A stretch of DNA of 64,000 bases from Candidatus Kaiserbacteria bacterium CG10_big_fil_rev_8_21_14_0_10_49_17 (GCA_002778575.1 PFBJ01000003.1:11057-75056), one strand, 5' to 3'; shown: positions 2,561 through 41,576, numbered from the stretch's first letter. Made by a program: numbers and translations. Notes: generated from the sequence alone by a model not told the origin.

Positions 2561-4180
2561 TTAGGACACCAGAGGTAATTCGAAACAGAAGCGCGAGCCC
2601 TTCCCTTCTCCATCGGATTCAGCCCAGATCTTTCCTTTGTGCGCCTCTATCATTTCTTTCGCAACGTAGAGCCCGAGGCCGGTACCAGAGACATTTACCT
2701 CATGCGCATTCCGCGCGCGAACAAATTTATCAAAAAGCTTCAGGCCGGTCTCGTGTGAAAAGCCGATACCGGTATCAGATATAATGACACGCGCGGTTCG
2801 GCCGGTACTAAGCCTGCATACTGATACACTAATAGATCCCTTTGACGTATATTTTATCGCATTGTCAATCAAGTTCGTGAGCACGTGCTTTATTTTCCCA
2901 AGGTCGGCACGTACTGTATATGGCCCGGTATCGTCAGTTTGGAATGTGAGTGTCAGATTCTTATTCTTCGCGACAGGTATTTGCTCCTCAACAGATTTCT
3001 TCGACAAATCCGCCAAATCAAAATCTTGCATCTCATACTTCATACGGCCTTGTTCGATTCGAGACACATTAAGGAAATCCTCGACCGATTCGGCCATAAG
3101 CCATCCAGACTCGTATATTCGTTCAACCGCCTCTCGCACCCCTTCGCTTACTTTTCCGTATGTTCCTTCAAGAATCATAGAGGCATAGCCCGTCATAGAC
3201 GTGAGAGGACTGCGAAGTTGGTGGCTTGCGATTGAGACAAATTCACTCTTTAGCCTATCGAGTTCACGGAGTCGCACATTTGCTTTCTCAAGCTGTTTTG
3301 TAAGCCGTTCCAATTCCTCCCGCTGTTCAACTTCACGGTACACACTCCTCATCAACAGGTATCCGAGAATAGCAACAAGAGCAATCAGAACAACCCGAAG
3401 AATTAGCTGCGTAGTCGTCTCCGCTAGGAATAGCTCAACGACCAGGAATGAGAGAATAGCAAATGCGAAAACTTCCGTCGCAATGAGTTTTAAGTTAAAT
3501 AATTTAAAGCGGACAATGGCATAAAAGATAAATCCAACGTAGAAAAAGGTGGAAAAATTCGCGAGCCAGTTGATTTTAAAATATCCAAACCACGGAAGGA
3601 TAAGGTTGCTTACCATTCCAATTGAAGATGCGATAAGAACACCGAGAAACAGCGTGAGTGTCCGTTTTCGAAACGCTGGATTTCTTGATTTCAGATACGC
3701 AAAGAAAAGAAGTGAAAGTGCAATGGAGAAAAAAATTAAAAAGTGTGACGCGTATAGTAAGTACCCGTACCCAAACACCACAACCTTCTCGCCAACTGGC
3801 GGTACCGAAACCGCAACAACTACAGATGCGGTAAAATACGTCAGAAGCCCCAATGCGCACGCCGAACCGTACGCAAGGAGCGGAATGATGCGCGTAACTG
3901 AGACAATCTCTCGTACGTACTGCGTGACAAAGTGGAGAAAAAAGACTGGAATAAAAAGCGCTGCTATGTGGTGAAGACGCGTCAGTGCGAGCAAGTGCTC
4001 AACGTCCTGAAGATAGCGGTAGTAGATAATACCCGCGGACCACGTCACTATAGCAACTACAATCAATGTGAACGTGCGATTGGCTGGCGCAGAGTGTGAG
4101 GTTCGCTGAAAAAATACAGCGAGCGCCAAAAATATATTTAAGACGATAATACTCGTCAGTAAAATGTTTATTATGTCCAT
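2561..4180 (-). CDS. sensor histidine kinase with N-terminal multi-TM (about 7 TM) sensor domain
   Basis: HisKA H-box SHQLRSPLTSMTGYAS, HATPase_c N/G boxes (NLIDNAIKYT, DTGIGF, GTGLGL); paralog of 56368-58443. Confidence 0.9.
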   Translation of the reverse strand: MDIINILLTSIIVLNIFLALAVFFQRTSHSAPANRTFTLIVVAIVTWSAGIIYYRYLQDVEHLLALTRLHHIAALFIPVFFLHFVTQYVREIVSVTRIIPLLAYGSACALGLLTYFTASVVVAVSVPPVGEKVVVFGYGYLLYASHFLIFFSIALSLLFFAYLKSRNPAFRKRTLTLFLGVLIASSIGMVSNLILPWFGYFKINWLANFSTFFYVGFIFYAIVRFKLFNLKLIATEVFAFAILSFLVVELFLAETTTQLILRVVLIALVAILGYLLMRSVYREVEQREELERLTKQLEKANVRLRELDRLKSEFVSIASHQLRSPLTSMTGYASMILEGTYGKVSEGVREAVERIYESGWLMAESVEDFLNVSRIEQGRMKYEMQDFDLADLSKKSVEEQIPVAKNKNLTLTFQTDDTGPYTVRADLGKIKHVLTNLIDNAIKYTSKGSISVSVCRLSTGRTARVIISDTGIGFSHETGLKLFDKFVRARNAHEVNVSGTGLGLYVAKEMIEAHKGKIWAESDGEGKGSRFCFELPLVS

Positions 4181-10160: not shown

Positions 10161-10550
10161 TTACCGCTTGCTCCACTGAGGCGCTCTGCGCGCTTTTCGC
10201 AAGCCAAATTTCTTTCGCTCCTTCATGCGCGGATCCCGCTTGAGGTACCCCGCAAGTTTAAGCTCCTTTCGAAGCTCGGCATCATACTTTAGAAGCGCCC
10301 GAGCAATACCGTGCCGGATAGCTTCAGCTTGCGCTGAGATACCGCCGCCAAAAACTTTCGCAGAAACGCTAAAATGCGCATCGGTTTTCTGAAATGGCTG
10401 AAGGACTGTCGTCATAAGCTCTGCGGTTGGCAAATACTCCGCAAGCGGCTTCCCATTTATCAGCACTTCAGATTTTTTTGCAGGCGTAATACGCACGCGC
10501 GCTATTGCGGTTTTTCGTCGTCCTACTGCTTCTAGATATTTCTCTGCCAT
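10161..10550 (-). CDS. rpsI: 30S ribosomal protein S9
   Basis: GGGISAQAEAIRHGIARAL...RRAPQWSKR C-terminus. Confidence 0.95.
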   Translation of the reverse strand: MAEKYLEAVGRRKTAIARVRITPAKKSEVLINGKPLAEYLPTAELMTTVLQPFQKTDAHFSVSAKVFGGGISAQAEAIRHGIARALLKYDAELRKELKLAGYLKRDPRMKERKKFGLRKARRAPQWSKR

Positions 10551-10551
10551 A

Positions 10552-10968
10552 TTATTCAGTGATTGTAAGTCGCTTCATGCGCGGCTTTCGTAGTCGGTTC
10601 CCTGGGAGCATACCGTAGACGGCACGCTTGAGCAATTCACTGTGCCCGCGCCGTGCAGCAAGTTTTGCCGCGCTCTCTTTGCGCAAGCCTCCCGGGAAGC
10701 CTGTGTAGCGGGTATAGATTTTTCCATCGGCCTTTCGCTGAGGGAGATCAATTTTTGAGACATTCGTAACTGTCACCTCAACGTCTGCAACAACATGCTT
10801 TTCAAAATCTGGCATATTTTTGCCCATGAGAATATGCGCTATCTCTGTAGCGAGGCGCCCAACCTTTCTACCTGTCGCATCAATTTCATACTTCACACCA
10901 GTAGAAGACGCTCCGGTTGCGTCTCGGGTCTTACTATCATTTTTGCTGTTTGTGTTTGTTTCTGTCAT
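10552..10968 (-). CDS. rplM: 50S ribosomal protein L13
   Basis: GRLATEIAHILMGK, GFPGGL; short N-terminal extension. Confidence 0.92.
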   Translation of the reverse strand: MTETNTNSKNDSKTRDATGASSTGVKYEIDATGRKVGRLATEIAHILMGKNMPDFEKHVVADVEVTVTNVSKIDLPQRKADGKIYTRYTGFPGGLRKESAAKLAARRGHSELLKRAVYGMLPGNRLRKPRMKRLTITE

Positions 10969-15507: not shown

Positions 15508-16674
15508 CTATACCACAGGTTTATTTTTTTCAACCGCTCTTATTCGTTTGGCAAACAGGGCCCCAACCGCAAGAAATGGGTCTTCTTTTACGCTCTTACC
15601 CTTAAACGTGCAGAATTCACAGATCCGATTCGCTGTTAAAAGTTCCGGTGAAAATGCCTCACCAGTCAGTGTAAATGCTCCAAAATCAATTCGTGAGGTA
15701 AGTTCCGCCAACCACAACCCGATTGAGCCGTCACACGCCAGAAGCAGGAAATTTGGCAGTCGTTTTGTCTCTGAAAGCTTGCCGACTGATGACCCGAATT
15801 GCTTTATCCACTTCTGCGCGACTGTCTCGATGCTCTTTTGCACCGTAGAGTCTTCTTTCTGTGTTCCAGACACGCCAAGCGAGAGTCTCGATAGCGACTC
15901 TTCCGGAGTTGTTCCAAGAAGTTCTGCCAAATCGCGGGCAATTGAATGCTTGCCGTACGGAAATGTTACATAATTTGAAAGTATATCTCCGCGGACAACA
16001 CCGATATCCGACACCTCCCCCGTCACATCCATTAGTAGGAAGTCTGATTGCTCGAATACGTCTCGTGCGGTGAGGAAAAACGGGAGAATGAATGAATTGT
16101 AGGAAACAGCCGTCTCCCCAAACTGTTCATCAAATACCCGCTCAAGCGAAGAGTGAAATGCGGTGTCCATATACCCCACCGCAAGGGATAGCGCGATGTG
16201 TTTCGCTTTCTTCTTCTCGGGATTCGCCGTCGGGTATCCGTTTAGCAATACCTGCATCGAAAACTCTTCCGTCTGATCCACGCCGGCCGCAGTCTCTGCA
16301 GCTTTTTCAACGATTTCAGCGCGGGCGCTCTCCAGCAGGGTTTTAATATACGCATCAGTAATGTCTTTCGGCTCATCGTGCTTTGCTTCAATTGACGCTG
16401 TTTCAATGTGCACCCACGGCGACGCGGACATGCATACAATTCTTGAAAATTGATTCACCTGCTCATCGGCAAGCGCTTTGATAAGACGCTCTGATACCAC
16501 CCGGACTGTCTCTGCTGTCTTCTTTTCAAGCGTCTTTGCGTCAAGCACTTCAGTTAGCGTAAGCGGTACTCGTGTTGTGTATGTAATGTGCGGTTGTGTA
16601 TCACCGTCTAACACTACCAGTGCACCCGCGACCGAAGCGCTCCCAATATCAAATAATGCGACGTACTCTCGCAT
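15508..16674 (-). CDS. actin-like ATPase, FtsA/PilM family
   Basis: phosphate-1 FDIGSASVAG, phosphate-2 MDVTGEVSDIGVV, FPYGKHSIARDLAELLG and LLLACDGS adenosine motif; alternative start 16707. Confidence 0.7.
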   Translation of the reverse strand: MREYVALFDIGSASVAGALVVLDGDTQPHITYTTRVPLTLTEVLDAKTLEKKTAETVRVVSERLIKALADEQVNQFSRIVCMSASPWVHIETASIEAKHDEPKDITDAYIKTLLESARAEIVEKAAETAAGVDQTEEFSMQVLLNGYPTANPEKKKAKHIALSLAVGYMDTAFHSSLERVFDEQFGETAVSYNSFILPFFLTARDVFEQSDFLLMDVTGEVSDIGVVRGDILSNYVTFPYGKHSIARDLAELLGTTPEESLSRLSLGVSGTQKEDSTVQKSIETVAQKWIKQFGSSVGKLSETKRLPNFLLLACDGSIGLWLAELTSRIDFGAFTLTGEAFSPELLTANRICEFCTFKGKSVKEDPFLAVGALFAKRIRAVEKNKPVV

Positions 16675-16748
16675 TTCTTTTTTATTTCGGTGGAGAAACA
16701 CAAACATTCTCTACAGTATACGGTCTACGTATCGAATTGCACAGATAA

Positions 16749-20621: not shown

Positions 20622-21197
20622 TTATCGCAACGATTCAAGGAAACTCTTATACTCGTCGAATGTTTCGTTTAGACGGACTCGAAGCGGATGTTCGCCCAGT
20701 TTCTCAGAGATAATAGCAACGAGTGCGCCATATACGTATATTCTGTCATCAATGTTTCCTGAGAACTGATTCTTAAAATCATCGGGATGCCCGCTGAATT
20801 CCCTGATAGCATTTGAAAAATTATGTATCTTATCCGCTGCAGCGACAATAGCAGACTCCAGTGGGGCTTTTTGTAAATTTTCCCCATACGCTCGGCGGCT
20901 CTTTTCCCACTCAGTTGCGCCTATCGCTTGCGGAATCGTAACACCAAGTACGATGTTCTTCACTCGCGCGCCGAATTCTTCTTCTATCTCTTCAGGCAAA
21001 ATATTCGTGTCTTCCACTATGTCGTGGAGGAGCGCGGCAATAATGACATCTTCTTCAGTGCAGTATTCGCTCACTATCCACGCAACTGACACGAGGTGGG
21101 TGATGTAGGGGGTCTTCTTTTCTCCTTTCCTATACTGCCCCTCGTGCACTCTGGCAACTTTTTCAAGCGCTTTCTCAATTTCAGGAGTGAAATGCAT
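20622..21197 (-). CDS. HD-domain phosphohydrolase, (p)ppGpp-hydrolase-like (RelA/SpoT HD family)
   Basis: HxxxH...LLHDIVEDT metal-binding signature. Confidence 0.75.
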   Translation of the reverse strand: MHFTPEIEKALEKVARVHEGQYRKGEKKTPYITHLVSVAWIVSEYCTEEDVIIAALLHDIVEDTNILPEEIEEEFGARVKNIVLGVTIPQAIGATEWEKSRRAYGENLQKAPLESAIVAAADKIHNFSNAIREFSGHPDDFKNQFSGNIDDRIYVYGALVAIISEKLGEHPLRVRLNETFDEYKSFLESLR

Positions 21198-21223
21198 ATA
21201 TAGAGAGCATCATACCATACGCA

Positions 21224-21931
21224 ATGAATGACTTGAGAATGGTGTACACTGCCCGTATGGCACATGCCGACATAAAACTGGCTCCCGAGTGGAAGGTGCT
21301 TTTAGCCGCAGAATTTACTGCACCGTATTTTACAGAGTTGGCTGAGTTGGTTCGCGCAGAATACCTTACACATACGGTCTTTCCTCCTCCGAAATACATT
21401 TTCCGCGCACTTGATTTAGTGGCGCCGTCTGACGTAGCGGTAGTCATCCTTGGGCAAGACCCGTACCACACCCCTGGTGTCGCTGACGGACTCGCATTTT
21501 CAACAGGAAGCAAGAATCGCATTCCGCCATCACTTGCAAATATCTTTAAAGAAATAGAAAGCGAGTTTGCTGTGCCGTGCATACAGAATCCGGATCTAAC
21601 TCGGTGGGCGAACCAAGGAGTACTGCTTCTTAATGCGTCGCTCTCGGTACGCTCTGGCGAGGCAAATTCACACGCTCTGTACGGGTGGCACACATTTACC
21701 GATGCAATTATCAAATCCCTATCGGAAAATTACTCACATATTGTTTTTATGCTCTGGGGCACGTTTGCAGGGAAAAAAGAGGTGCTCATTGACTCACATA
21801 CGCACTTGGTATTGAAATCGGCTCACCCATCACCGCTCTCCGCGCATCGAGGTTTTTTTGGAAATGCGCACTTTACGCGGGCGAATGCCTATCTAATTAA
21901 AAACGGAAAGAAACCTATTGACTGGAGGTAA
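21224..21931 (+). CDS. ung: uracil-DNA glycosylase, family 1
   Basis: GQDPYH water-activating loop, HPSPLSA leucine-loop motif; true start may be internal (MAHADIK, about 21257). Confidence 0.9.
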   Translation: MNDLRMVYTARMAHADIKLAPEWKVLLAAEFTAPYFTELAELVRAEYLTHTVFPPPKYIFRALDLVAPSDVAVVILGQDPYHTPGVADGLAFSTGSKNRIPPSLANIFKEIESEFAVPCIQNPDLTRWANQGVLLLNASLSVRSGEANSHALYGWHTFTDAIIKSLSENYSHIVFMLWGTFAGKKEVLIDSHTHLVLKSAHPSPLSAHRGFFGNAHFTRANAYLIKNGKKPIDWR

Positions 21932-24681: not shown

Positions 24682-25533
24682 TTACATTGCTACACCGCTT
24701 GTGCACAAGTCCTGAGCTTCTCGCATTGCTTCCGCGGCTTTCTCGGGTGTTATGCCGTGCTCCGTAAGAACACTTGCGCCCGCCTTAATTGAGCGACACA
24801 GAACAAGTTTGTCTTCAAGTAGTCGCTGTTTTTCCGACTCTGAGAGCGTTGTGAGGCACGTAATAGGGTGCAGACCTGTTTCTGAAACAAGATCCTGTAA
24901 ATTGCCGCTTTCCGGGTAATTCCAGCCGATAAGCGTCAGCCCGACACACTTTCCGTATTCAATTGCATTACCGGTAAATTTTGTATTCGTAATGAGCATC
25001 CCGCGCTCAATGTGCGCTTCTCCCTCTACTTTCGGAGCTTCGGCTAAATCAATAAAGCGCGCCCGCACGTACAGCGCTACCTTTAGGTCGGTTTTCATCC
25101 CGGGACTGTTATGAAATTTTACCTCGGCACCAAATGCATCATCAGCTGACGTCGCGATAAGATCCACCTCGTGTTCAGCGCACTTTCCGTTTGTGATAAC
25201 TCCCGTCATGACGTCGTAGCCTTTCGCGCGGAAAATTTCACTTACGAAATCCTCAAACGGAAAACCGGACGGGCCGAGCGCTAGGATTGCCCGCTTCAGT
25301 GAATAGCGTGCCGCAACGGGACGCACCTCTTTCTCCCGTAAATAATTAAATGCTCGTGAGTAAATTTCTTGAGTCGACATGCCGTCTTTCATTTCAGAAA
25401 CCACCTGCGTTGTTATTTCCGCAATAGTTTTCTCTCCCGCGCCTGCCCGGGTAAGAGAGCGCTTGAGCTTTTCCGGATCAAACGGCTCCCGCTCTCCATC
25501 AGCTTTAACAATTGTGACGCTTTTTTTCTCCAT
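24682..25533 (-). CDS. ATP-cone domain fused to Mrr-type PD-(D/E)xK restriction-endonuclease-like domain
   Basis: N-terminal ATP-cone (VTIVKADGEREPFDPEKLKRSL...), then FEDFVSEIFRAKGYDV...EVDLIA...AEVKF (D...ExK) matching Mrr_cat. Confidence 0.65.
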   Translation of the reverse strand: MEKKSVTIVKADGEREPFDPEKLKRSLTRAGAGEKTIAEITTQVVSEMKDGMSTQEIYSRAFNYLREKEVRPVAARYSLKRAILALGPSGFPFEDFVSEIFRAKGYDVMTGVITNGKCAEHEVDLIATSADDAFGAEVKFHNSPGMKTDLKVALYVRARFIDLAEAPKVEGEAHIERGMLITNTKFTGNAIEYGKCVGLTLIGWNYPESGNLQDLVSETGLHPITCLTTLSESEKQRLLEDKLVLCRSIKAGASVLTEHGITPEKAAEAMREAQDLCTSGVAM

Positions 25534-26646: not shown

Positions 26647-27660
26647 CTAATTAACATAGAGTGCCTTCTTTCTTTTATGCTCCTCAAACGTTCGAGAAAA
26701 GTACGTCACACCGTTTCTATCAGCCAAGTAGTAGAGGTAGTTACTCTCAATCGGCTCAGCTGCGGCAATAATCGATTCGATAGACGGACTGCCGATCGGC
26801 GTCGGTGGGAGCCCTTTGTGCTGGTATGTGTTATACGGCGACGAGGCGTCAGCGAGCTCGGCTTTGGTAATATCGTATGTACCCTTCCCGTTTATGTAAC
26901 GGAATGTCGCGTCAACCTGAAGCGCCATATCAATATCCAACCGATTCCATAACACGCTGGCTATACGTCGCTTTACCTCAAAATCATGCGCCTCTCGTTC
27001 AAGTATTGACGCCATTATGACAATATCCTCCACGGAGCGCCCTGAAGCTCCAAGCCGCAATGCAATATCTTCAATGCGCGCGAAGAACGTACCGCGCAAA
27101 ACCGAGACGACTTCATCTGCCGTAGTGCTTGGCAGAAAGTGGTACGTATCAGGGTAGAGGTACCCCTCAAATTGCGTGGCAATCTGCGTAAAGCGTTCCG
27201 CGTCGAAGCGAGGCAGTACACTCTGTAACTGTTGCGCCATCTCTGCCACTGTTGACCCCTCTTCAATCCTCACTGTAATGGTATCAAGCCCGTACTCTCC
27301 GCGATTCATTCTCCACGCAAGCGCAAGTACGTTTTCCCTTGTGTCGAGATAGTAATCTCCTGCTATGACTTTTCCTCCGAAAAGAAGTGCGGCTGCTTTA
27401 AACACCGTAGCTGACTGGATAATGCCGTTTTCTTTCAGTAGTGATGCAGTACTGCCAATTGTCCCGCCGCTTTTAACGGTAATGACGTGTTGCGTAGGAA
27501 ATGTATGCGGCGGCGCAATGAGCGTTGAATATGTCAGTGAGATAAGAAAAAGAACCGCAACTGCAAAAAGTGCGGCAGTTTCTCTATTGCGATTGTGTCG
27601 CATCCATGTATGAAGTCGCTCATGCCTTGAGCGCATTTTTTCTATTAGCACGCGCATCAT
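26647..27660 (-). CDS. mltG: endolytic murein transglycosylase MltG (YceG-like)
   Basis: N-terminal TM, YceG domain, conserved YYLADRNGVTYFSRTFEEH region. Confidence 0.82.
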   Translation of the reverse strand: MMRVLIEKMRSRHERLHTWMRHNRNRETAALFAVAVLFLISLTYSTLIAPPHTFPTQHVITVKSGGTIGSTASLLKENGIIQSATVFKAAALLFGGKVIAGDYYLDTRENVLALAWRMNRGEYGLDTITVRIEEGSTVAEMAQQLQSVLPRFDAERFTQIATQFEGYLYPDTYHFLPSTTADEVVSVLRGTFFARIEDIALRLGASGRSVEDIVIMASILEREAHDFEVKRRIASVLWNRLDIDMALQVDATFRYINGKGTYDITKAELADASSPYNTYQHKGLPPTPIGSPSIESIIAAAEPIESNYLYYLADRNGVTYFSRTFEEHKRKKALYVN

Positions 27661-28988
27661 GTCGGGAGATTTGTGGGCGCGCCGCCGGTCGTGCTTGGGA
27701 TACGGCGAAGTGCGGGGGCCGATACAGCCTCGCCAGGGAAGTGATAGAGAGTCGCAAGCTCTTCCGTATTAAGCACGAAGTGCGGAGTCTCGTACGGCGG
27801 GTAAAACCACGAACGCCGTTTATACGCGTCAATGATTGCCGCTTTCATTTTGTTTTTCTTTCTATCCTTATAGTCCTGCCACGGATAGCTGAATGCCGTA
27901 AACCACCCCGTCGGAGCAAACCCATTGAGTAAATCATCATTTAATTGCTTTAGTGAGATGGTAAGCGCAGGAATATTCGAAGCATTGAAATTCTCCTTCT
28001 TTGCAATATAAATACCACGAATACCCGCATCAAAACCGGGCTTGCTGATACTCCGTTCGATTGCCTCGAGTTGCAGTTTCTGGCCGAATGTAGGATTTGG
28101 AAAACCTGGAAATTCTTGCCCTGGATATTGCGGAGAAGATTCTTCACGAATTTTCTGAATCATCGCTTTCGCCTCGTCCTTCCATGACACATACCCGCCA
28201 AACGGCCCCCACCCAGCATCTTTTTTAAAGCGTTTGTCTTCCGATAGCTTGTCTTTATTTTGACGAATCAGTATCTGAAACCACAGCTGCTCCCCGGGCC
28301 CCATTCGGCCGAGAAATTCGAAGAAACCGGCCATTGGGTCAATTTTATATTCTTCTTTCGGATCTTTATCGAGACCGTAGTCAACGTACGTACGAATCGG
28401 GAGGGCGTCTTCTTTGGTGAGTTTAAAATCGCACCCCCACACATTCATCGTTTCAACATTAAATTCTACGAATTTTGTATAGTCCTCAACTTCAGTTATC
28501 TGCACGTTCGGGTACTGCCCGTATATTTGCGCCTCAACAATGTCTTGTAAGAAACGCCGAGTCCAAATAAAGAAATGAATTTCTCCTTCAATGGAAGCTA
28601 TTTCAAGCGAGAACCACGGACGCACTCTTCCCTCCAGCCATCTGTTGATAAATGTTGCCTCTCCCATGCCAAGATGAAAATTGGTGAGGACCGTTTCCAT
28701 TGCTTTTGGTGATTTTGAAATTTCCTGGGGAAGCCGGATCTCCAGCAATACGTATTCCTGAGAGTTGATAAATTTCGTTCGAATGTATGTTTTCCACATT
28801 CCCCAAAACACAAACAGCAGCACTACCGGAAGCCATAACGGAGAGAGCGCGAGTATGCCGCGAAAGACGGAACCGAGGAGCGACGGGGAGAGGTACGTAA
28901 TAACCGAGAGTATGATGACAAGCACCGGTACCAAGACGGTAGTCGGTGAAAACCCGAATTTATCTGCAAGGTTAACGAGCCATTGCAT
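27657..28988 (-). CDS. hypothetical membrane protein (3 N-terminal TM plus about 330-aa soluble domain)
   Basis: 4-nt overlap with mltG start suggests co-transcription/coupling; no known domain. Confidence 0.55.
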   Translation of the reverse strand: MQWLVNLADKFGFSPTTVLVPVLVIILSVITYLSPSLLGSVFRGILALSPLWLPVVLLFVFWGMWKTYIRTKFINSQEYVLLEIRLPQEISKSPKAMETVLTNFHLGMGEATFINRWLEGRVRPWFSLEIASIEGEIHFFIWTRRFLQDIVEAQIYGQYPNVQITEVEDYTKFVEFNVETMNVWGCDFKLTKEDALPIRTYVDYGLDKDPKEEYKIDPMAGFFEFLGRMGPGEQLWFQILIRQNKDKLSEDKRFKKDAGWGPFGGYVSWKDEAKAMIQKIREESSPQYPGQEFPGFPNPTFGQKLQLEAIERSISKPGFDAGIRGIYIAKKENFNASNIPALTISLKQLNDDLLNGFAPTGWFTAFSYPWQDYKDRKKNKMKAAIIDAYKRRSWFYPPYETPHFVLNTEELATLYHFPGEAVSAPALRRIPSTTGGAPTNLPT

Positions 28989-29057: not shown

Positions 29058-30092
29058 TTAGGCGAGAGTGTAACGGCCGTCTTTGCCGCGCGCAAAAACA
29101 CTCGAATCCTGAAGATTCACAAGAATTGTATTGTCCTTCACGTATCGCTCCTTTCGAACGCGGTCAATAATTTCATCGCGAGTCAGTGGCCCTTCATTCT
29201 TCAAAATCTCACGGATAACTTCCTTTACAACGCCAGTCGAATAGCCCCACTCAGAAAGTGCGTAAAGTCCGCGGCCGACAAGTACAAAACGGTCGTCTTT
29301 AATAAGTTCATTGTGGCACGTAGCCGTATGTGCTCGACGATTGAAGAGTTCATTGATAGCCTTTGCAACCTCTGTAAAGTGCATCGGTGAGCCGTGTCGC
29401 TTAATTGCCAAGTATGCGTAGTCCCGCATGCCTTTTGCACGGACGTTCGGACTTGCCGCAAGCCCCCACTCCCCGAGCGGGTTTTGCCCAATACCCTTTG
29501 ACAGCGAGAGCCATCGGCGAAGTATTTCTTCATCGCGGTAACGTTGGTTAAGATCGCGAAGTTCTGAAAGAAATGTATCGAACAGTTCGGACTCCGGAAT
29601 TAAATCGTCATCACCAAGATTTTTGTATACCGAGCGGAGTGCGTTTTGGACTTGCTCTGCCAATTTTTCATCCGTGTACCAACGGTGTGCAAATTCTGAA
29701 TCTTCCTTTTTTCGAGTAAATTGATTCCCAAGCACTAGAAGAAAGTGTATGTGATTCCGTGTGCTCTCATCCTTTGCGACGGATGCGAGGAGGCTTTCCT
29801 CTGAAATGACGCCTCCGAGGGAGTCAACATACTCCGCCAGTGCCGCAAATGCTGCCGCTTCATTTTCAAATGCCTCGGATTTCTGGATTGTCGCAATAGC
29901 GTAATTTTCAATCTGTCGTACTCGCTCACGCGTAATGCCGTACCGCTTGCCAATCGCTTCAAGCGTGAGGGGATCGGTCTTATCTCCAAGACCGTAGCGC
30001 GCAATGAGTACTTCTCGGGCACGGTCCGGTAGAGCGGCGAGGAGTCGCTTCGTTACCGCTTTTGGTTTAAGTGATGAAATTACGGTTGCCAT
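29058..30092 (-). CDS. DNA-binding protein with N-terminal sigma-70 region-4-like HTH and two C-terminal HARE-HTH domains
   Basis: LTLEAIGKRYGITRERVRQIE (sigma r4.2-like); RFVLVGRGLYALSEWGY and a second PLTRDEIIDRV...SVFARGKDGRYTL winged-helix matching HARE-HTH RFVRVGRGxFALxEW. Confidence 0.6.
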   Translation of the reverse strand: MATVISSLKPKAVTKRLLAALPDRAREVLIARYGLGDKTDPLTLEAIGKRYGITRERVRQIENYAIATIQKSEAFENEAAAFAALAEYVDSLGGVISEESLLASVAKDESTRNHIHFLLVLGNQFTRKKEDSEFAHRWYTDEKLAEQVQNALRSVYKNLGDDDLIPESELFDTFLSELRDLNQRYRDEEILRRWLSLSKGIGQNPLGEWGLAASPNVRAKGMRDYAYLAIKRHGSPMHFTEVAKAINELFNRRAHTATCHNELIKDDRFVLVGRGLYALSEWGYSTGVVKEVIREILKNEGPLTRDEIIDRVRKERYVKDNTILVNLQDSSVFARGKDGRYTLA

Positions 30093-30151
30093 TGCGCATC
30101 TAATTAATATGTACTCCCATTTGTATCACTTACTTTCACCCCCGTCAAGCC

Positions 30152-36648: not shown

Positions 36649-36684
36649 AGTGTAGTCACCGGAGCAAGCTCCAATGACTACACT
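36649..36684. promoter_or_regulatory. 10-bp perfect inverted repeat AGTGTAGTCA-n16-TGACTACACT upstream of efflux operon
   Basis: seen directly; core AGTGTAGT/ACTACACT shared with hairpin at 48170-48207. Confidence 0.45.
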
Positions 36685-36820
36685 CCAAACGTATCATGCA
36701 CAGTATCGTTTTGCAAGAGTTTGCAAAGGTGCTGTGGATAAATGCGATCCTAATCCGAATAATTCCCTCTACAAAGCCAATTTTGACAAATTGTGTATTT
36801 TAATGTACTTTTATCCAGCT

Positions 36821-38476
36821 ATGTTGAAGAAAATCCTTACCTACCCGCGGGCAGGGCTCCGTTTTATACGGAACAATAAAAAAGTATCACTACCCGCTAT
36901 CGGACTTATTGTAATTCTCATAATTGCCGGACTTGTATCTGGCGGGACTCACGCAGACGTACCGAATGGAAAGGTTATTAAACGATCTGTCGAAGTTCGA
37001 TCAGTAGCTGAACTCTCAAATGACAAGACGCCTCTCTCCCTCACCGGTCGCGTACGCTCCCAAACTGAGGCAAATCTCTACACCGAGCGCTCGGGTGAAG
37101 TCACCGGCGTTTACCGTACTGTTGGTGATTTTGTATACGCCGGAACAGTTATAGCTGAGATTTCCAATACGTCTGAACGGGCAGCTGTTTTTCAAGCCGA
37201 AGGTGCGGTCGAGCAAGCACAAGCCGCGCTCCAAAAGGTTCAAAGCGGCGCTCGGTCTGAAGAAATTTCTATTCTTGAAATTAATCTGCGCAATGCGAAT
37301 GAGTCATACCAAACTGCCTTGACTAGCGCTCTTAATACTCTCCTTTCCGCGTACGCCACAATTGACGACGCTATTTTGCGCCGTTCTGACCAGGCATTCT
37401 CAAATCCGCGCCTGAGCAATCCAACATTTAATCCTCCTCTCCCCGATTCACAACTCGCAATTACGCTTGCCAATGACCGACTTGCCATTCAATCCATTCT
37501 TGCGCGCCACGCAGTAGCCAGCGCGACTATTTCTGGTGATGAGAGCATAGAAGGTGAATTGGCTAAAACAGCTGAAGATGCCCGTTTTGTTAAGGGATTT
37601 CTTGACGATTTGGTGTATGCTCTTAACCGAGCTATCACATCCTCATCCGTAAGCAGCACTGACATCGACGCATTTCTTGCAGATGCAACGACTGCGCGTA
37701 GTAACGTACAGTCAGTACTAAGTGCGCTTTCAACGGCGCAGTCGACAATCGAGACAAAACGCGCCCTGCTTGAGGTTGCGGAAAAAAACCGCGACCAGGC
37801 AATTAGCGGTGCCCGCAGTGAAGACATTGCAAGTGCTGAGGCTACGTTAAAGCAGGCGCTTGGGACGCTGCGTGTTGCTCAGGCAAACCTTGCAAAAACA
37901 CTGATACGCACGCCAATTAGCGGAACGCTTAATACGCTTTCGATTCAGCAGGGCGACTTCGTGTCCGCGCAGGTTCCTGCCGCAACTGTTTCAAATAACT
38001 CTGCTTTAGAGATACAGACATATATCACCCACGCTGACCGAGAAGACATTGCCGTAGGGTCGGACGTAACCATTGAGGGACGCTACAAGGGGGTTGTAAC
38101 CAGCATCGCGCCGGGCCTTGACCCGATTACCCGTAAAATTGAAGTGCGTATTGGCCTCTCTGATACTGAAACCGAACTAGTGCACGGAGATTCGGTTCGT
38201 ATGTCAGTAAGCCGCGCCGCGAAAGTTGCCGATGCAAGAGAGAGCACTACAGCTGATCAATTTAGTATCCCAATTTCAGCGCTGAAAGTTGAAACTGATC
38301 GAGTTCTCGTATTTACCGTGGATGAAGACCGAACACTCGTTGAGCATACCGTTAAGGAGGGAGCTCTTCTGGGGGAGAAAGTGATTATTCTTGAAGGTCT
38401 TTCCCCTGAAATGGAAATTGTACTGGATGCCCGCGGTCTTGTTGCCGGAGATAGCGTCGTCCTAGTAGAGCGGTAA
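36821..38476 (+). CDS. efflux transporter periplasmic adaptor subunit (HlyD/membrane-fusion protein family) with long coiled coil
   Basis: N-terminal TM, extended coiled coil, beta-barrel/MP domains; start set at MLKKILTYP preceded by AT-rich region. Confidence 0.8.
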   Translation: MLKKILTYPRAGLRFIRNNKKVSLPAIGLIVILIIAGLVSGGTHADVPNGKVIKRSVEVRSVAELSNDKTPLSLTGRVRSQTEANLYTERSGEVTGVYRTVGDFVYAGTVIAEISNTSERAAVFQAEGAVEQAQAALQKVQSGARSEEISILEINLRNANESYQTALTSALNTLLSAYATIDDAILRRSDQAFSNPRLSNPTFNPPLPDSQLAITLANDRLAIQSILARHAVASATISGDESIEGELAKTAEDARFVKGFLDDLVYALNRAITSSSVSSTDIDAFLADATTARSNVQSVLSALSTAQSTIETKRALLEVAEKNRDQAISGARSEDIASAEATLKQALGTLRVAQANLAKTLIRTPISGTLNTLSIQQGDFVSAQVPAATVSNNSALEIQTYITHADREDIAVGSDVTIEGRYKGVVTSIAPGLDPITRKIEVRIGLSDTETELVHGDSVRMSVSRAAKVADARESTTADQFSIPISALKVETDRVLVFTVDEDRTLVEHTVKEGALLGEKVIILEGLSPEMEIVLDARGLVAGDSVVLVER

Positions 38477-38477
38477 T

Positions 38478-41400
38478 ATGTATTATTTTTGGAGTTTTTT
38501 CCTGAAGAAACGCAGCTTCTCATATCTTTTTATAGCGGCGCTCGTTGTCTTCGGCAGTGCGGCTGTTTTTACGATTCCAAAGGAAAATGCTCCGGAGGTA
38601 AAGGTGCCCATTGCAATTGTCTCAACAATACTCCCTGGAGCAACCGCAGAGACTGTAGAGAAACTGGTTACAAACAAAATTGAGGACGCAATTGCAAACC
38701 TCGAGGATATTAAGTCAATCACATCAACTTCCCGAGAGGGCATTTCTGGCATCGTAGTTGAATTTGACGCAAAGGCTGACATCGAGACATCGGTGCAGGA
38801 CCTTAAGAATGAAGTTGATACCGTGGCACCGCAACTGCCAAATGAAGCTGAAGACTCAACAGTTACGAAGCTCTCCTTTGTGGACCAGCCGGTCCTCACC
38901 GTTGCTATTTCTGGCGACTTGCCTGCACCTGAATTTTTTGCATTAGCCGATTCGCTTGAACGTGAGTTAAAAGCGCTCGCCGGCGTCTCTGACGTACACA
39001 TAGCAGGTAAGCGTGAGCGTGAAGTGCAGGTAATCGTAAGCAAAGAAGCGCTTGCCACCTACGGCCTCACGCTTTCGCAGGTGACCGCTGCAATTGCAGG
39101 TGCTAATACGACACTCCCTATCGGCAGTATTACCGTTAATGATATTGAATACAACGTAGAATTTGCGAGCGACGTTACGGATCCTTCAGAAATCGCTGAC
39201 CTTGCAATCCTTTCCACTCCAAATGGTAGTCCTATTTATGTCCGCGATGTCGCATTTGTTTCAGACAGTTTCGAGAAGACCCGCACATTCTCACGTATCT
39301 CAATTGACGGCTCTCCGAGTGAAAACGCTCTTTCATTTAATATTTTCGCGAAGTCAGGTGGAGATATTACAGACGTTTCCGCACACGTTCGCGCGCACCT
39401 TACCGCACTACAGGAGCCTGGGAGCCTTCTTGAGGGAGTCACTGTCCTTGTCGTTTTTGATGCAGGAGAATTTCTAAAGCGAGACCTCCTCACGCTCGTT
39501 TTCTCCGGCCTTCAAACAGTAGCACTTGTTATGATTATTCTCTTCCTCACAATCGGGTGGCGTGAAGCGCTCGTCGCCGGTGCCGCAATTCCTCTTTCAT
39601 TTCTCATTGCATTTATTGCTCTGGAGGCAACCGGAAACACAATAAACTTTGTTTCTCTTTTCTCGCTCATTTTAGCAGTGGGTATCTTGGTTGACTCCGC
39701 AATTGTAATTGTCGAGGGCATACATACCAGAATGAAGCTTCAAATGGACAAAAAGGAAGCGGCGTATGAGACGATCAAGGAATTTTACCTTCCGCTGACA
39801 TCTGGGACTCTCACGACCGTTGCCGTATTTGCCCCGCTCTTTTTGATTTCAGGCATTACAGGCGAATTTATCGCAAGCATTCCGTTTACGATTATTTTCG
39901 TGCTTATGGCTTCGCTCCTTGTCGCGCTCGGTTTTATTCCGCTTATTGCCTCTATCGTCCTGCGGCGGCGCAACATGAGTCGTCTTGAGGAGAGTCAGGA
40001 ACAGTTCACTTCACGACTCCAAAAATGGTACCGGAACGTGCTCGATTCATTTCTTGAGAATAGAAAGAAGCAACGAACGCTCTTTATTTCACTGTCTGTT
40101 GCATTTGTTGTCGCCCTTTCCTTCCCTATTGTTGGAGTCGTACCGGTTATCTTCTTTCCACAGGAAGATATAGATTTCATTGTCGCTGATGTAGAAATGC
40201 CGCAGGGCTCGATTCTCGAGCGAACTGATTTTGAAGCGCGGAAGGTTGAGGAGATTCTGTACGAGGAGCCTGCAATCGATTCATTTGTAACCACAGTCGG
40301 ACAAGCGAGTTCCTTTGGACTTGAGGGGGGCACGACAGAGAAACGTTTTGCCAATGTATTTATTAACCTGCGGACTGACAGAAGCGACACAAGTACCGAA
40401 ATCGTTAATAGGCTTAGGGAATCAACTACTGACATCCACACAGCAAAGGTGAGCGTCTCTCAGCCGTCAAACGGCCCGCCGGGAGGCGCGCCAGTGTCGA
40501 TTTCATTCCTTGGGGATAATCTCGACGATCTTGATCGCGTCGCAAAGCGGGCCGCACAGCTTCTTGAAAGCATCCCCGGAACTGCTGATGTCGCAACCGG
40601 AGCCCGTAACAGCACGACAGAATTTGTACTGACTATCGACAAAGCAAAGGCGACCGAGCTTGGTCTTGATCCACGAACAGTTGCAGAGACACTTCGGACA
40701 GCGGTGTATGGAACAACTGCCACAACGATAAAAAATCAGGAGGGTGACATTGACGTAGTCGTTCGTCTTGATCTTAATGCTGATTTTATTAATCCGCACG
40801 ATACAAACCGCGCGACTATTGATGATATTCGCCAACTCGCAATTGAAACTGCGCGTGGCCCGATACTGCTCGGATCAGTTCTCACCGGCAGTATTAAGAA
40901 AGGCAACCCGACAATTGCTCACGACGACCGCAAGCGCGTTACCACCGTGACCGCACAGCTTGCTGAAGGTGGAAATGCGCTTGCGATTGTTTCAGAGTTC
41001 CAGGACCGCATCGCTGAGCTTTCGCTTGGCGAAGGTATAGTTGCTGATTTTGGCGGAGAGAATGAAGACGTTCAACAGTCATTCCAGGATATGTTCTACG
41101 CCCTCATCATCGGCATGCTGTCAATGTTTGCTATTCTTGTCTTGCAATTTAACTCATTCCGGCATGCGGGATACGTGCTCTCTATTGTTCCGCTTGCACT
41201 TATCGGCATTTTTGCCGGACTCGCTATTACCGGAAAGGCCCTTTCGTTCCCGTCAATTATGGGATTTATAGCGCTTGCAGGAATTGTTGTTAATAACTCA
41301 ATTATCCTCATTGATGTTATTAACACGCTGCGCGCTAAAAATGACGGCGTCGTAACAAAGGAGATTATCATTACCGGTGCAACGGCACGCTTGCGCCCAA

Positions 41401-41576
41401 TTCTCCTTACTGCGCTTACGACTGTCATCGGAATTACACCGCTCATCTTTGCGGCGGAACTCTGGGCGCCACTTGCCTTCTCTATAATGTTTGGCCTTAC
41501 ATTCTCAGTTATTATTACACTCCTCCTTATTCCGGTTATTTACTACCGATGGCCAGGAAACGTCTCTCGTGAATAA
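38478..41576 (+). CDS. RND-superfamily efflux permease (AcrB/HAE family), 12 TM
   Basis: 1032 aa, two large periplasmic loops, conserved RND TM4/TM10 regions. Confidence 0.9.
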   Translation: MYYFWSFFLKKRSFSYLFIAALVVFGSAAVFTIPKENAPEVKVPIAIVSTILPGATAETVEKLVTNKIEDAIANLEDIKSITSTSREGISGIVVEFDAKADIETSVQDLKNEVDTVAPQLPNEAEDSTVTKLSFVDQPVLTVAISGDLPAPEFFALADSLERELKALAGVSDVHIAGKREREVQVIVSKEALATYGLTLSQVTAAIAGANTTLPIGSITVNDIEYNVEFASDVTDPSEIADLAILSTPNGSPIYVRDVAFVSDSFEKTRTFSRISIDGSPSENALSFNIFAKSGGDITDVSAHVRAHLTALQEPGSLLEGVTVLVVFDAGEFLKRDLLTLVFSGLQTVALVMIILFLTIGWREALVAGAAIPLSFLIAFIALEATGNTINFVSLFSLILAVGILVDSAIVIVEGIHTRMKLQMDKKEAAYETIKEFYLPLTSGTLTTVAVFAPLFLISGITGEFIASIPFTIIFVLMASLLVALGFIPLIASIVLRRRNMSRLEESQEQFTSRLQKWYRNVLDSFLENRKKQRTLFISLSVAFVVALSFPIVGVVPVIFFPQEDIDFIVADVEMPQGSILERTDFEARKVEEILYEEPAIDSFVTTVGQASSFGLEGGTTEKRFANVFINLRTDRSDTSTEIVNRLRESTTDIHTAKVSVSQPSNGPPGGAPVSISFLGDNLDDLDRVAKRAAQLLESIPGTADVATGARNSTTEFVLTIDKAKATELGLDPRTVAETLRTAVYGTTATTIKNQEGDIDVVVRLDLNADFINPHDTNRATIDDIRQLAIETARGPILLGSVLTGSIKKGNPTIAHDDRKRVTTVTAQLAEGGNALAIVSEFQDRIAELSLGEGIVADFGGENEDVQQSFQDMFYALIIGMLSMFAILVLQFNSFRHAGYVLSIVPLALIGIFAGLAITGKALSFPSIMGFIALAGIVVNNSIILIDVINTLRAKNDGVVTKEIIITGATARLRPILLTALTTVIGITPLIFAAELWAPLAFSIMFGLTFSVIITLLLIPVIYYRWPGNVSRE

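Follow-up and report, generated by a model that had tools for sequence, protein, structure and literature searches.

A sigma-A-like region 4 followed by four winged helices in a predicted DNA-binding protein family of Patescibacteria, and its operon linkage to DUF8128 and a VirD4-like ATPase

Introduction

TraM (F) and TrwA (R388) are substrate adaptors of T4CPs, the winged helix (wH) of FtsK gamma reads KOPS, and the wH of Streptomyces TraB likewise reads sequence. The CPR/Patescibacteria constitute a large share of bacterial diversity, and most of their lineage-specific core proteins are without an assigned role. A survey published in 2025 counted 5,713 VirD4-like T4CPs in 2,918 Patescibacteria genomes, only 148 of them near virB4, in bacteria in which relaxases are rare; the T4CP of one Saccharibacterium was reported to be non-essential, a sigma-like or HTH partner is not mentioned, and the role of these T4CPs was explicitly left open (PMC12102498). 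Among proteins that act together with RNA polymerase (RNAP), the delta subunit of B. subtilis possesses a HARE-HTH domain, which binds RNAP and not DNA, and an acidic C-terminal region with a net charge of -47 (PMC7749165). Here we analyse a gene of a Candidatus Kaiserbacteria genome whose product carries domains resembling those of both sigma factors and the delta subunit, together with its homologues and its neighbours.

Results and Discussion

Domain architecture of the protein

The gene is situated in a window (the whole stretch of DNA that was analysed, 64,000 nucleotides) of the Candidatus Kaiserbacteria core genome, which has a flat G+C and encodes aminoacyl-tRNA synthetases, DnaK/DnaJ/GrpE, RpoA with its own alpha-CTD and ribosomal protein S4. 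Its close neighbours are leuS, ychF, mltG/yceG and mnmA. The 344-aa product is 100% identical to COU17_00355, a hypothetical protein of a Candidatus Kaiserbacteria MAG. The gene and its domains are as follows:

29058..30092, minus strand: sigma-region-4 plus four-winged-helix gene, 344 aa, ATG start
29883..30044, minus strand: Sigma70_r4 domain, residues 17-70 (Pfam E 8.7e-16, 57.6 bits against a gathering score of 24.1)
29907-29933, minus strand: region 4 recognition helix TRERVRQIE, residues 54-62
29676..29858, minus strand: wH1, residues 79-139, acidic and variable (DSSP pattern of the AlphaFold2 model)
29460..29669, minus strand: wH2, residues 142-211 (AlphaFold2 model and hhalign)
29241..29429, minus strand: wH3, true HARE-HTH, residues 222-284, the most conserved part (Pfam PF05066)
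29061..29234, minus strand: wH4, HARE-HTH-related and DUF3320-like, residues 287-344 (Pfam DUF3320 and hhalign)

The sequence-only reading of this DNA had placed a sigma region 4 at the N-terminus, without regions 2 and 3, in front of two HARE-HTH winged helices, and had regarded the product as something other than a canonical sigma factor. The N-terminal region 4, of which LTLEAIGKRYGITRERVRQIE represents residues 42-62, is confirmed by the Pfam match listed above. Neither Pfam nor NCBIfam matched Sigma70_r2 anywhere in the 344 residues, the NCBIfam sigma models (RpoD, RpoS, MzaA and others) match the region 4 segment only and far under their cut-offs, and tblastn of E. coli RpoD regions 2-4 against the window gave a sole match, at 29895-30062, in which the query residues 139-193 are those of region 4. 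Since regions 2 and 3 are absent, the protein is indeed not a canonical sigma factor.

The C-terminal part is richer in domains than had been supposed. One of the two proposed HARE-HTH copies is genuine: PF05066 matches residues 224-282 in two stretches (E 8.7e-9, 36.1 bits against 25.9), so that this profile, like Sigma70_r4, exceeds its Pfam gathering score, and RFVLVGRGLYALSEWGY represents residues 268-284 of this domain. The second copy is a related wH, with a marginal DUF3320 match at residues 285-314 (26 bits against 25). Moreover, the C-terminal pair stands but is an undercount, because residues 76-215 hold two further winged helices, which brings the number of tandem winged helices after region 4 to four. 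An AlphaFold2 model built from 53 homologues is confident (pLDDT 91.2, pTM 0.73) and shows the four in a row after region 4, each with the order alpha1-beta1-alpha2-alpha3-beta2-beta3; the C-terminus of the protein is the folded wH4, with a pLDDT of about 94. Comparison of the segments with hhalign relates wH1 to wH2 (E 1.8e-5), wH2 to wH4 (E 8e-6) and wH3 to wH4 (E 2e-4). The median net charge in the family is +6 for region 4, +5 for wH3 and +5 for wH4, -3 for wH1 and 0 for wH2; in the protein of the window wH4 carries +2 and the whole chain +1.

Kinship of region 4 to the housekeeping sigma factor

The family profile, when compared with PDB sequences, matched sigma region 4 only, and group 1 sigma factors were the closest (E 1e-19). 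In an alignment made by eye with E. coli sigma-70, R24 corresponds to R554, R32 to R562, L44/E45 to L573/E574, T54-R55-E56-R57 to T583-R584-E585-R586 and R59-Q60 to R588-Q589, positions which we take to be -35 contacts from the structure of Taq sigma-A region 4 with -35 DNA. R24, R32, L44, R55, E56, R57, R59 and Q60 are invariant both among close homologues (alignment A1) and among divergent ones (alignment A2, down to 32% identity), E45 and T54 are conserved to at least 90% in both alignments, and the sole difference among the compared sites is the position of sigma-70 K593, which is Y or H in the family. The family alignment, spanning 33-100% identity, contains 23 invariant residues, and the invariant columns cluster in two places, region 4 and the wH3 segment made up of recognition helix and wing (HNELIKDxRFVLVGRGxYAL.EWGY). 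At one of the homologous loci (L071) a full-length RpoD, with regions 1.2 to 4, is encoded as well, at a distance of about 6 kb, and the two proteins have the same recognition helix, VTRERIRQI.

Because the -35-contact positions are invariant and the helix at this locus is identical to that of RpoD, the domain is a paralogue of the housekeeping sigma-A region 4, in a protein that is neither a split nor a canonical sigma factor. The split sigma, in which region 4 would be encoded apart from regions 2 and 3, was rejected since the RpoD of that locus has a region 4 of its own. The region 4 of the family is expected to read the same TTGAC-type hexamer as the housekeeping sigma factor.

The proximity to group 1 sigma factors, apparent from the PDB search as well as from the NCBIfam RpoD models, and the recognition helix shared with the genome's own RpoD also fit a different role, namely that of a general RNAP-associated or promoter-occupying factor of Patescibacteria; an RNAP-associated factor had also been suggested by the sequence-only reading. 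This role is the main rival to the adaptor role that we propose below, and we consider it possible but rather unlikely. Region 4 would then dock on the beta-flap tip of the core enzyme, as its sigma counterpart does, or compete with sigma-A for -35 elements, the HARE-HTH would bind RNAP like the N-terminal domain of delta, and the downstream DUF8128 protein would modulate or sequester the factor in the manner of an anti-sigma. In accordance with this, TIGR04567 links wH3 to the delta subunit (E 1.3e-6), and the binding of delta HARE-HTH to RNAP, not to DNA, counts against a DNA adaptor (PMC7749165). However, the absence of region 2 means that no stable sigma-type binding to the core would be possible, and the protein is without the acidic tail that is the source of delta activity (PMC7749165).

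Distribution and evolutionary rate

A scan with one genome per species shows that at least 556 species encode the family, and a HMMER scan of 1.84 billion cluster representatives (50% identity clusters) gave 601 clusters at E <= 1e-30. Among the best 150 of these clusters full-length sequences (335-380 aa) predominate, accompanied by fragments and a small number of longer proteins. Of the 80 loci inspected, nearly all carry a Patescibacteria/CPR label, with Kaiser-, Taylor-, Nomura-, Niyogi-, Yanofsky-, Uhr-, Buchanan-, Staskawicz- and Moranbacteria among them, and the few oddly labelled MAGs are probably a consequence of bin contamination. Homologues number more than 8000; the best 120 show 63-93% identity to the protein of the window, have a length of about 342 aa and share its domain pair, the HARE-HTH match being precomputed in almost all of them; they are named "hypothetical", "sigma factor-like helix-turn-helix DNA-binding protein" or "RNAP delta subunit". 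Judging by almost all loci inspected, this appears to be an uncharacterised family of predicted DNA-binding proteins specific to Patescibacteria.

In the 38 loci that share the neighbourhood of the window, the median identity to the window protein is 57% for the family, compared with 61% for YchF, 48% for MnmA, 46% for LeuRS, 41% for DUF8128 and 39% for YceG. The family evolves about as slowly as YchF and slower than LeuRS, and its 57% median identity indicates an evolution like that of a core information-processing gene and seems too high for an ordinary local regulator. Such a housekeeping-like rate, along with the spread of the family across Patescibacteria lineages, would also suit the RNAP-associated factor considered above.

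Genomic context and promoter

The sequence-only reading had also considered a regulator of a mobile or defence locus. The window lends this no support: the neighbours are core genes (leuS, ychF, mltG/yceG, mnmA), the G+C is uniform and the only PADLOC match is to the region 4 part of MzaA, and a gene of a defence or mobile island was rejected on these grounds. The idea of mobility nevertheless has a distant echo, since the machinery of DUF8128 and the ATPase described below derives from conjugation.

The 59-bp spacer between leuS and the gene contains the following element, read by eye:

30120..30148, minus strand: promoter-like element, TTGACG, 17 nt, TG-n-TACAAA

This site escaped a scan for consensus promoters owing to the final A of its -10 hexamer. 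TTGAC is found within 120 nt upstream in 72 of the 80 homologous loci, compared with 10.7% of random 120-nt windows, and the family gene probably has a promoter of its own, the element being promoter-like in sequence. Such an arrangement invites the explanation that the protein is an operon-specific autoregulator, which would bind its own TTGAC promoter region and control itself, DUF8128 and the ATPase. The gene is the first of its unit, HTH proteins encoded first in an operon often regulate themselves, and region 4 would be expected to bind the -35 hexamer found there. We nevertheless regard autoregulation as improbable: any sigma-A promoter would show an upstream TTGAC, five domains with 23 invariant residues and a median identity above that of LeuRS are atypical for a local regulator, and the protein and DUF8128 persist together where the ATPase has left the locus.

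DUF8128 and the VirD4-like ATPase

The gene directly downstream encodes the most constant partner of the family:

27657..28988, minus strand: DUF8128 protein, 443 aa (Pfam DUF8128 in precomputed tables), conserved operon partner

A search for co-occurring genes, which the sequence-only reading had put forward as a check, was rewarding: in tblastn with the neighbours of the family gene, DUF8128 comes directly after it in the same orientation at 75 of 83 loci, which span 33-100% identity, and a VirD4-like ATPase adjoins in 33, all of them divergent. Four of the eight loci without DUF8128 (L032, L033, L080, L083) end about 1 kb or less downstream of the gene. The synteny with LeuRS, YceG, MnmA and YchF is retained among close relatives only, while DUF8128 is kept in nearly all loci of 33-40% identity though every other neighbour has changed. 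The gap between the two genes has a median of 69 bp and in several loci is 0 or -1. DUF8128 possesses N-terminal TM helices (about two, as read from the sequence) and a fold like that of the VirB4 N-terminal domain; its profile gave no match among PDB sequences.

In the divergent half of the family the conserved cassette begins with SecD-SecF and the family gene, continues with DUF8128 and in some loci a small TM protein, and ends with a P-loop ATPase. SecD/SecF are conserved upstream in the divergent loci that have SecDF-type ORFs, with SecF immediately upstream in 20. The ATPase is 550-650 aa long, carries TrwB_AAD_bind (E down to 3.4e-13), TraG-D_C and DUF87/HerA domains and ends in a CxxC-x17-CxxC treble-clef zinc finger. 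Its nearest curated families are the VirD4-like CD1115 and TraD, both far under their cut-offs (53.9 against 250, T4CP). For a reciprocal look-up, an independent search supplied three ATPase homologues, and each proved to belong to a triad of family gene, DUF8128 and ATPase, with differing flanks; in one locus (L084) the stop and start codons within the triad overlap. DUF8128 and the ATPase form one ORF of 915 aa in another locus (L075), and a single viral profile, phrog_5156, is matched by DUF8128 in its N-terminal and by the ATPase in its C-terminal part. This fusion and the shared profile indicate that DUF8128 and the ATPase are the two pieces of a split membrane ATPase of the VirB4/VirD4 superfamily.

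These partners bear on the RNAP-associated factor as well. A membrane protein gene just downstream resembles the arrangement of sigma/anti-sigma pairs; however, DUF8128 belongs with an ATPase and has the fold of the VirB4 N-terminal domain, not an anti-sigma domain, and such a factor would leave the tight triad operon unexplained.

An ATPase gene was found neither within 8 kb on either side in the Kaiserbacteria-like loci (L001-L042), where yceG comes after DUF8128, nor in the 64-kb window. None of the best 120 ATPase homologues carries a Kaiserbacteria label, which does not imply that the gene is absent elsewhere in such genomes. Relaxase or VirB channel genes were not seen among the named neighbours or the recurring clusters of neighbouring ORFs, the Pfam scan having covered selected ORFs. 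As regards a possible replacement of FtsK by the module, tblastn with the E. coli FtsK motor as query gave no match in about 1.2 Mb, a sample too small to interpret; FtsK is reportedly mentioned in papers on the saccharibacterium TM7x.

The persistence of the gene and DUF8128 without an adjacent ATPase in the Kaiserbacteria-like clade could alternatively mean that no pumping takes place and that the protein is nucleoid-associated or a chromosome-to-membrane tether, whose wH array coats or bridges DNA and whose partner DUF8128 provides an anchor for segregation or origin positioning. Each chain has three basic domains of a DNA-binding type, the partner is membrane-bound, and one family member has an added DnaA domain IV, a DNA-binding domain, while another is fused to SecF. 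Both fusions, however, are single cluster representatives and possibly gene-calling artefacts, the invariant sigma-like base-reading residues point to sequence-specific and not to bulk binding, and a tether would not account for the ATPase gene that adjoins in the other half of the family. We judge such a tether to be very unlikely.

Proposed role as an adaptor of a membrane ATPase

We tentatively favour a role for the protein as the subunit that recognises DNA, or as an adaptor, in a split membrane ATPase module of the VirB4/VirD4 type that is specific to Patescibacteria. In favour of this are the operon linkage to both partners, the sigma-A-like residues of region 4, the three basic domains, the DnaA domain IV added in one family member and the slow evolution of the protein. 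The first gene of this module would contribute the paralogue of sigma-A region 4 with its four winged helices, the second DUF8128, with the VirB4 N-terminal-domain fold, as an anchor held in the membrane by its N-terminal TM helices, and the third a soluble, VirD4/TraD-like P-loop ATPase with a C-terminal zinc finger. Double-stranded DNA would be bound by the basic region 4 together with the basic wH3 and wH4. The base-contacting residues of region 4 agree with those of the sigma-A of the host, for which reason it would read a -35-like sequence of the TTGAC type; the more acidic and variable wH1 and wH2 may be the surface on which the complex of DUF8128 and the ATPase docks. DNA would thereby be brought to, or oriented on, a membrane-bound translocase, whose purpose might be transfer, uptake or segregation. 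The reading of KOPS by the wH of FtsK gamma would be a parallel, as would TraM and TrwA, accessory proteins of the relaxosome that pass DNA on to a T4CP.

Several observations temper this proposal. Neither a relaxase nor an element resembling an origin of transfer was seen near the module, and the T4CP of one Saccharibacterium was reported to be non-essential (PMC12102498). The protein and DUF8128 are conserved also where no ATPase is nearby, and the function may thus not need that ATPase; the conserved upstream position of SecD/SecF shows that gene order can be kept in these loci even between genes with no obvious tie in function. A more far-reaching version of the proposal, which we consider unlikely as it stands, is that a split VirB4/VirD4 motor has been domesticated, with a duplicated sigma-A region 4 as a selector of promoter-type TTGAC elements in place of oriT or KOPS, and that it captures, orients or moves chromosomal or foreign DNA at the membrane. 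If true, this would be a sigma-domain-guided DNA translocase, and the thousands of orphan T4CPs in CPR genomes would thereby acquire a function.

The combination of domains as such may not be new. Aravind and Iyer (2012) reportedly mentioned HARE-HTH in bacterial proteins with features of both the RNAP alpha-subunit and sigma factors, and the pair Sigma70_r4 and HARE-HTH is already present in public precomputed Pfam tables. Our literature searches found no paper on the family, on the Sigma70_r4 and HARE-HTH combination or on DUF8128, and a search on CPR sigma or delta factors likewise found none on the family. What appears to be undescribed is the four-wH architecture, the CPR-wide conservation and the operon in which the gene stands with those of DUF8128 and an orphan T4CP-like ATPase. 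The family is among the most conserved proteins of its neighbourhood, and in it the promoter-reading domain of the housekeeping sigma factor is re-used in a non-sigma context. Its linkage turns the question of the orphan T4CPs (PMC12102498) into a concrete hypothesis of three proteins. If the protein should instead be bound to RNAP, it would represent a CPR-specific addition to the basal transcription machinery.

Comparison with known systems

In group 1 sigma factors (RpoD/SigA, PF04545) region 4 is C-terminal, whereas in the family protein it is N-terminal; regions 1.2, 2 and 3 are missing and the K593 position differs. Since these three regions are absent, the protein can neither open promoters nor bind core RNAP in the manner of a sigma factor. 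With the delta subunit (RpoE) of Firmicutes the family shares the HARE-HTH signature ...D.RF...G.W.L..W in wH3, which is reflected in the TIGR04567 match; however, residues 221-290 score only 28.5 bits where the cut-off is 42, the HARE-HTH lies inside the chain and not at its N-terminus, the acidic disordered C-terminal region is absent and the lineage is a different one. Identity with the delta subunit was rejected on the basis of the score under the cut-off and the missing acidic tail.

SigO-RsoA of Bacillus subtilis and MzaA resemble the family in having a sigma region 4 outside the standard one-chain sigma factor. In place of a region-2-like partner, as in SigO-RsoA, the neighbour of the family gene is the VirB4-NTD-like DUF8128, and LeuRS or SecF is encoded upstream. 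MzaA (NF041931) is the top match in both NCBIfam and PADLOC, but the former gives 59.3 bits against a cut-off of 800 and covers model positions 644-716 only, the latter (PDLC02203) scores 28.5 bits, on region 4 alone, and the neighbours of the family gene are housekeeping genes. A pair of the ECF/anti-sigma kind was rejected because DUF8128 has a VirB4-NTD-like fold and no anti-sigma domain. The family does not belong to the sigma-70, delta/RpoE, MzaA, SigO-RsoA or ECF/anti-sigma groups, a tested defining feature being absent in each case.

Four consecutive winged helices are also known from the C-terminal domain of SelB and, as extended winged helices, from RPC62/Rpc82 of RNA polymerase III. 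The best Foldseek matches of the model are SelB, RPC62/Rpc82, UFL1-DDRGK1 and Dcc1, over about 280 columns (E 1.3e-4 to 1.6e-3). The TM-scores to these proteins are only about 0.2, which indicates that the domains are arranged differently; they show no sequence similarity to the family, and their biology (RNA binding, eukaryotic complexes) is unrelated.

The systems closest to the adaptor role proposed here are TraM, TrwA, FtsK gamma and TraB. TraM and TrwA are not homologous to the family protein, the putative reader of DNA is in this case a separate protein composed of sigma region 4 and four winged helices, and the ATPase, by contrast with these systems, consists of two parts, a VirB4-NTD-like anchor and a VirD4-like motor. 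By analogy, what the family would share with all four is a sequence-specific DNA-binding module tied to a membrane-anchored ATPase of the FtsK/HerA/VirD4 superfamily, here by a conserved operon.

Distribution and possible fusions of the family

The most likely explanation for the unexpected taxon labels of some members of the sigma-region-4/winged-helix family is contamination of bins or generic naming, and not real presence beyond Parcubacteria-type lineages. Three loci (L009, L035 and L078) and one protein (P0025) come from MAGs labeled as Thermodesulfobacteriota, Spirochaetaceae, Gammaproteobacteria and KSB1. These members are 55-69% identical to the Kaiserbacteria protein, and many further members are found in MAGs labeled "uncultured Candidatus Saccharibacteria". 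Two family representatives, each standing for one cluster, are joined to other proteins: P0162 (552 aa) carries DnaA domain IV at its C-terminus (Bac_DnaA_C, E 1.2e-22), and in P0179 (659 aa) SecF precedes the family protein in one chain. Either could be a genuine fusion or an artefact of gene calling or assembly.

Neighboring genes

In some lineages an ORF of about 170-197 aa, with a TM segment at the N-terminus, is situated between the genes for DUF8128 and the VirD4/TraD-like ATPase.
L049 (homologous locus), 10291-10797: small TM protein; equivalents in L044, L066, L077 and L081
These proteins have no match in Pfam; they may be a fourth component of the module.

The window also holds the following genes.
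2561-4180 (-): 7TM-HisKA histidine kinase
15508-16707 (-): 399-aa ORF
21181-21714 (-): 177-aa ORF
24682-25533 (-): ATP-cone and Mrr-type protein, 283 aa, by domain matches
36674-41576 (+): HlyD-type adaptor and 1032-aa AcrB-family RND pump
The 283-aa protein matches both the ATP-cone (E 9.6e-13) and the Mrr-type restriction-endonuclease catalytic domain (E 2.1e-6), shows a weak likeness to NrdR at its N-terminus, and its gene has retained its syntenic position across 25 related loci. It is an unusual fusion in core-gene surroundings, a nucleotide-sensing nuclease or regulator. Neither the 399-aa nor the 177-aa ORF has a Pfam match at E <= 1e-4. This small CPR genome encodes the RND pair and the histidine kinase, and in the homologous locus L002 such an RND pair adjoins the module.

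Promoter pattern upstream of the family gene

A promoter pattern consisting of TTGAC, about 17 nt and TGATAnAAA recurs no more than 120 nt upstream of the family gene across loci L001-L083.
Window 30120-30148 (-): promoter pattern of the family gene
Within these 120 nt, 72 of 80 loci contain TTGAC; the background frequency is 10.7%. This suggests that sigma-A promoters of CPR retain the classical -35 element together with an extended -10 element whose final base is A instead of T.
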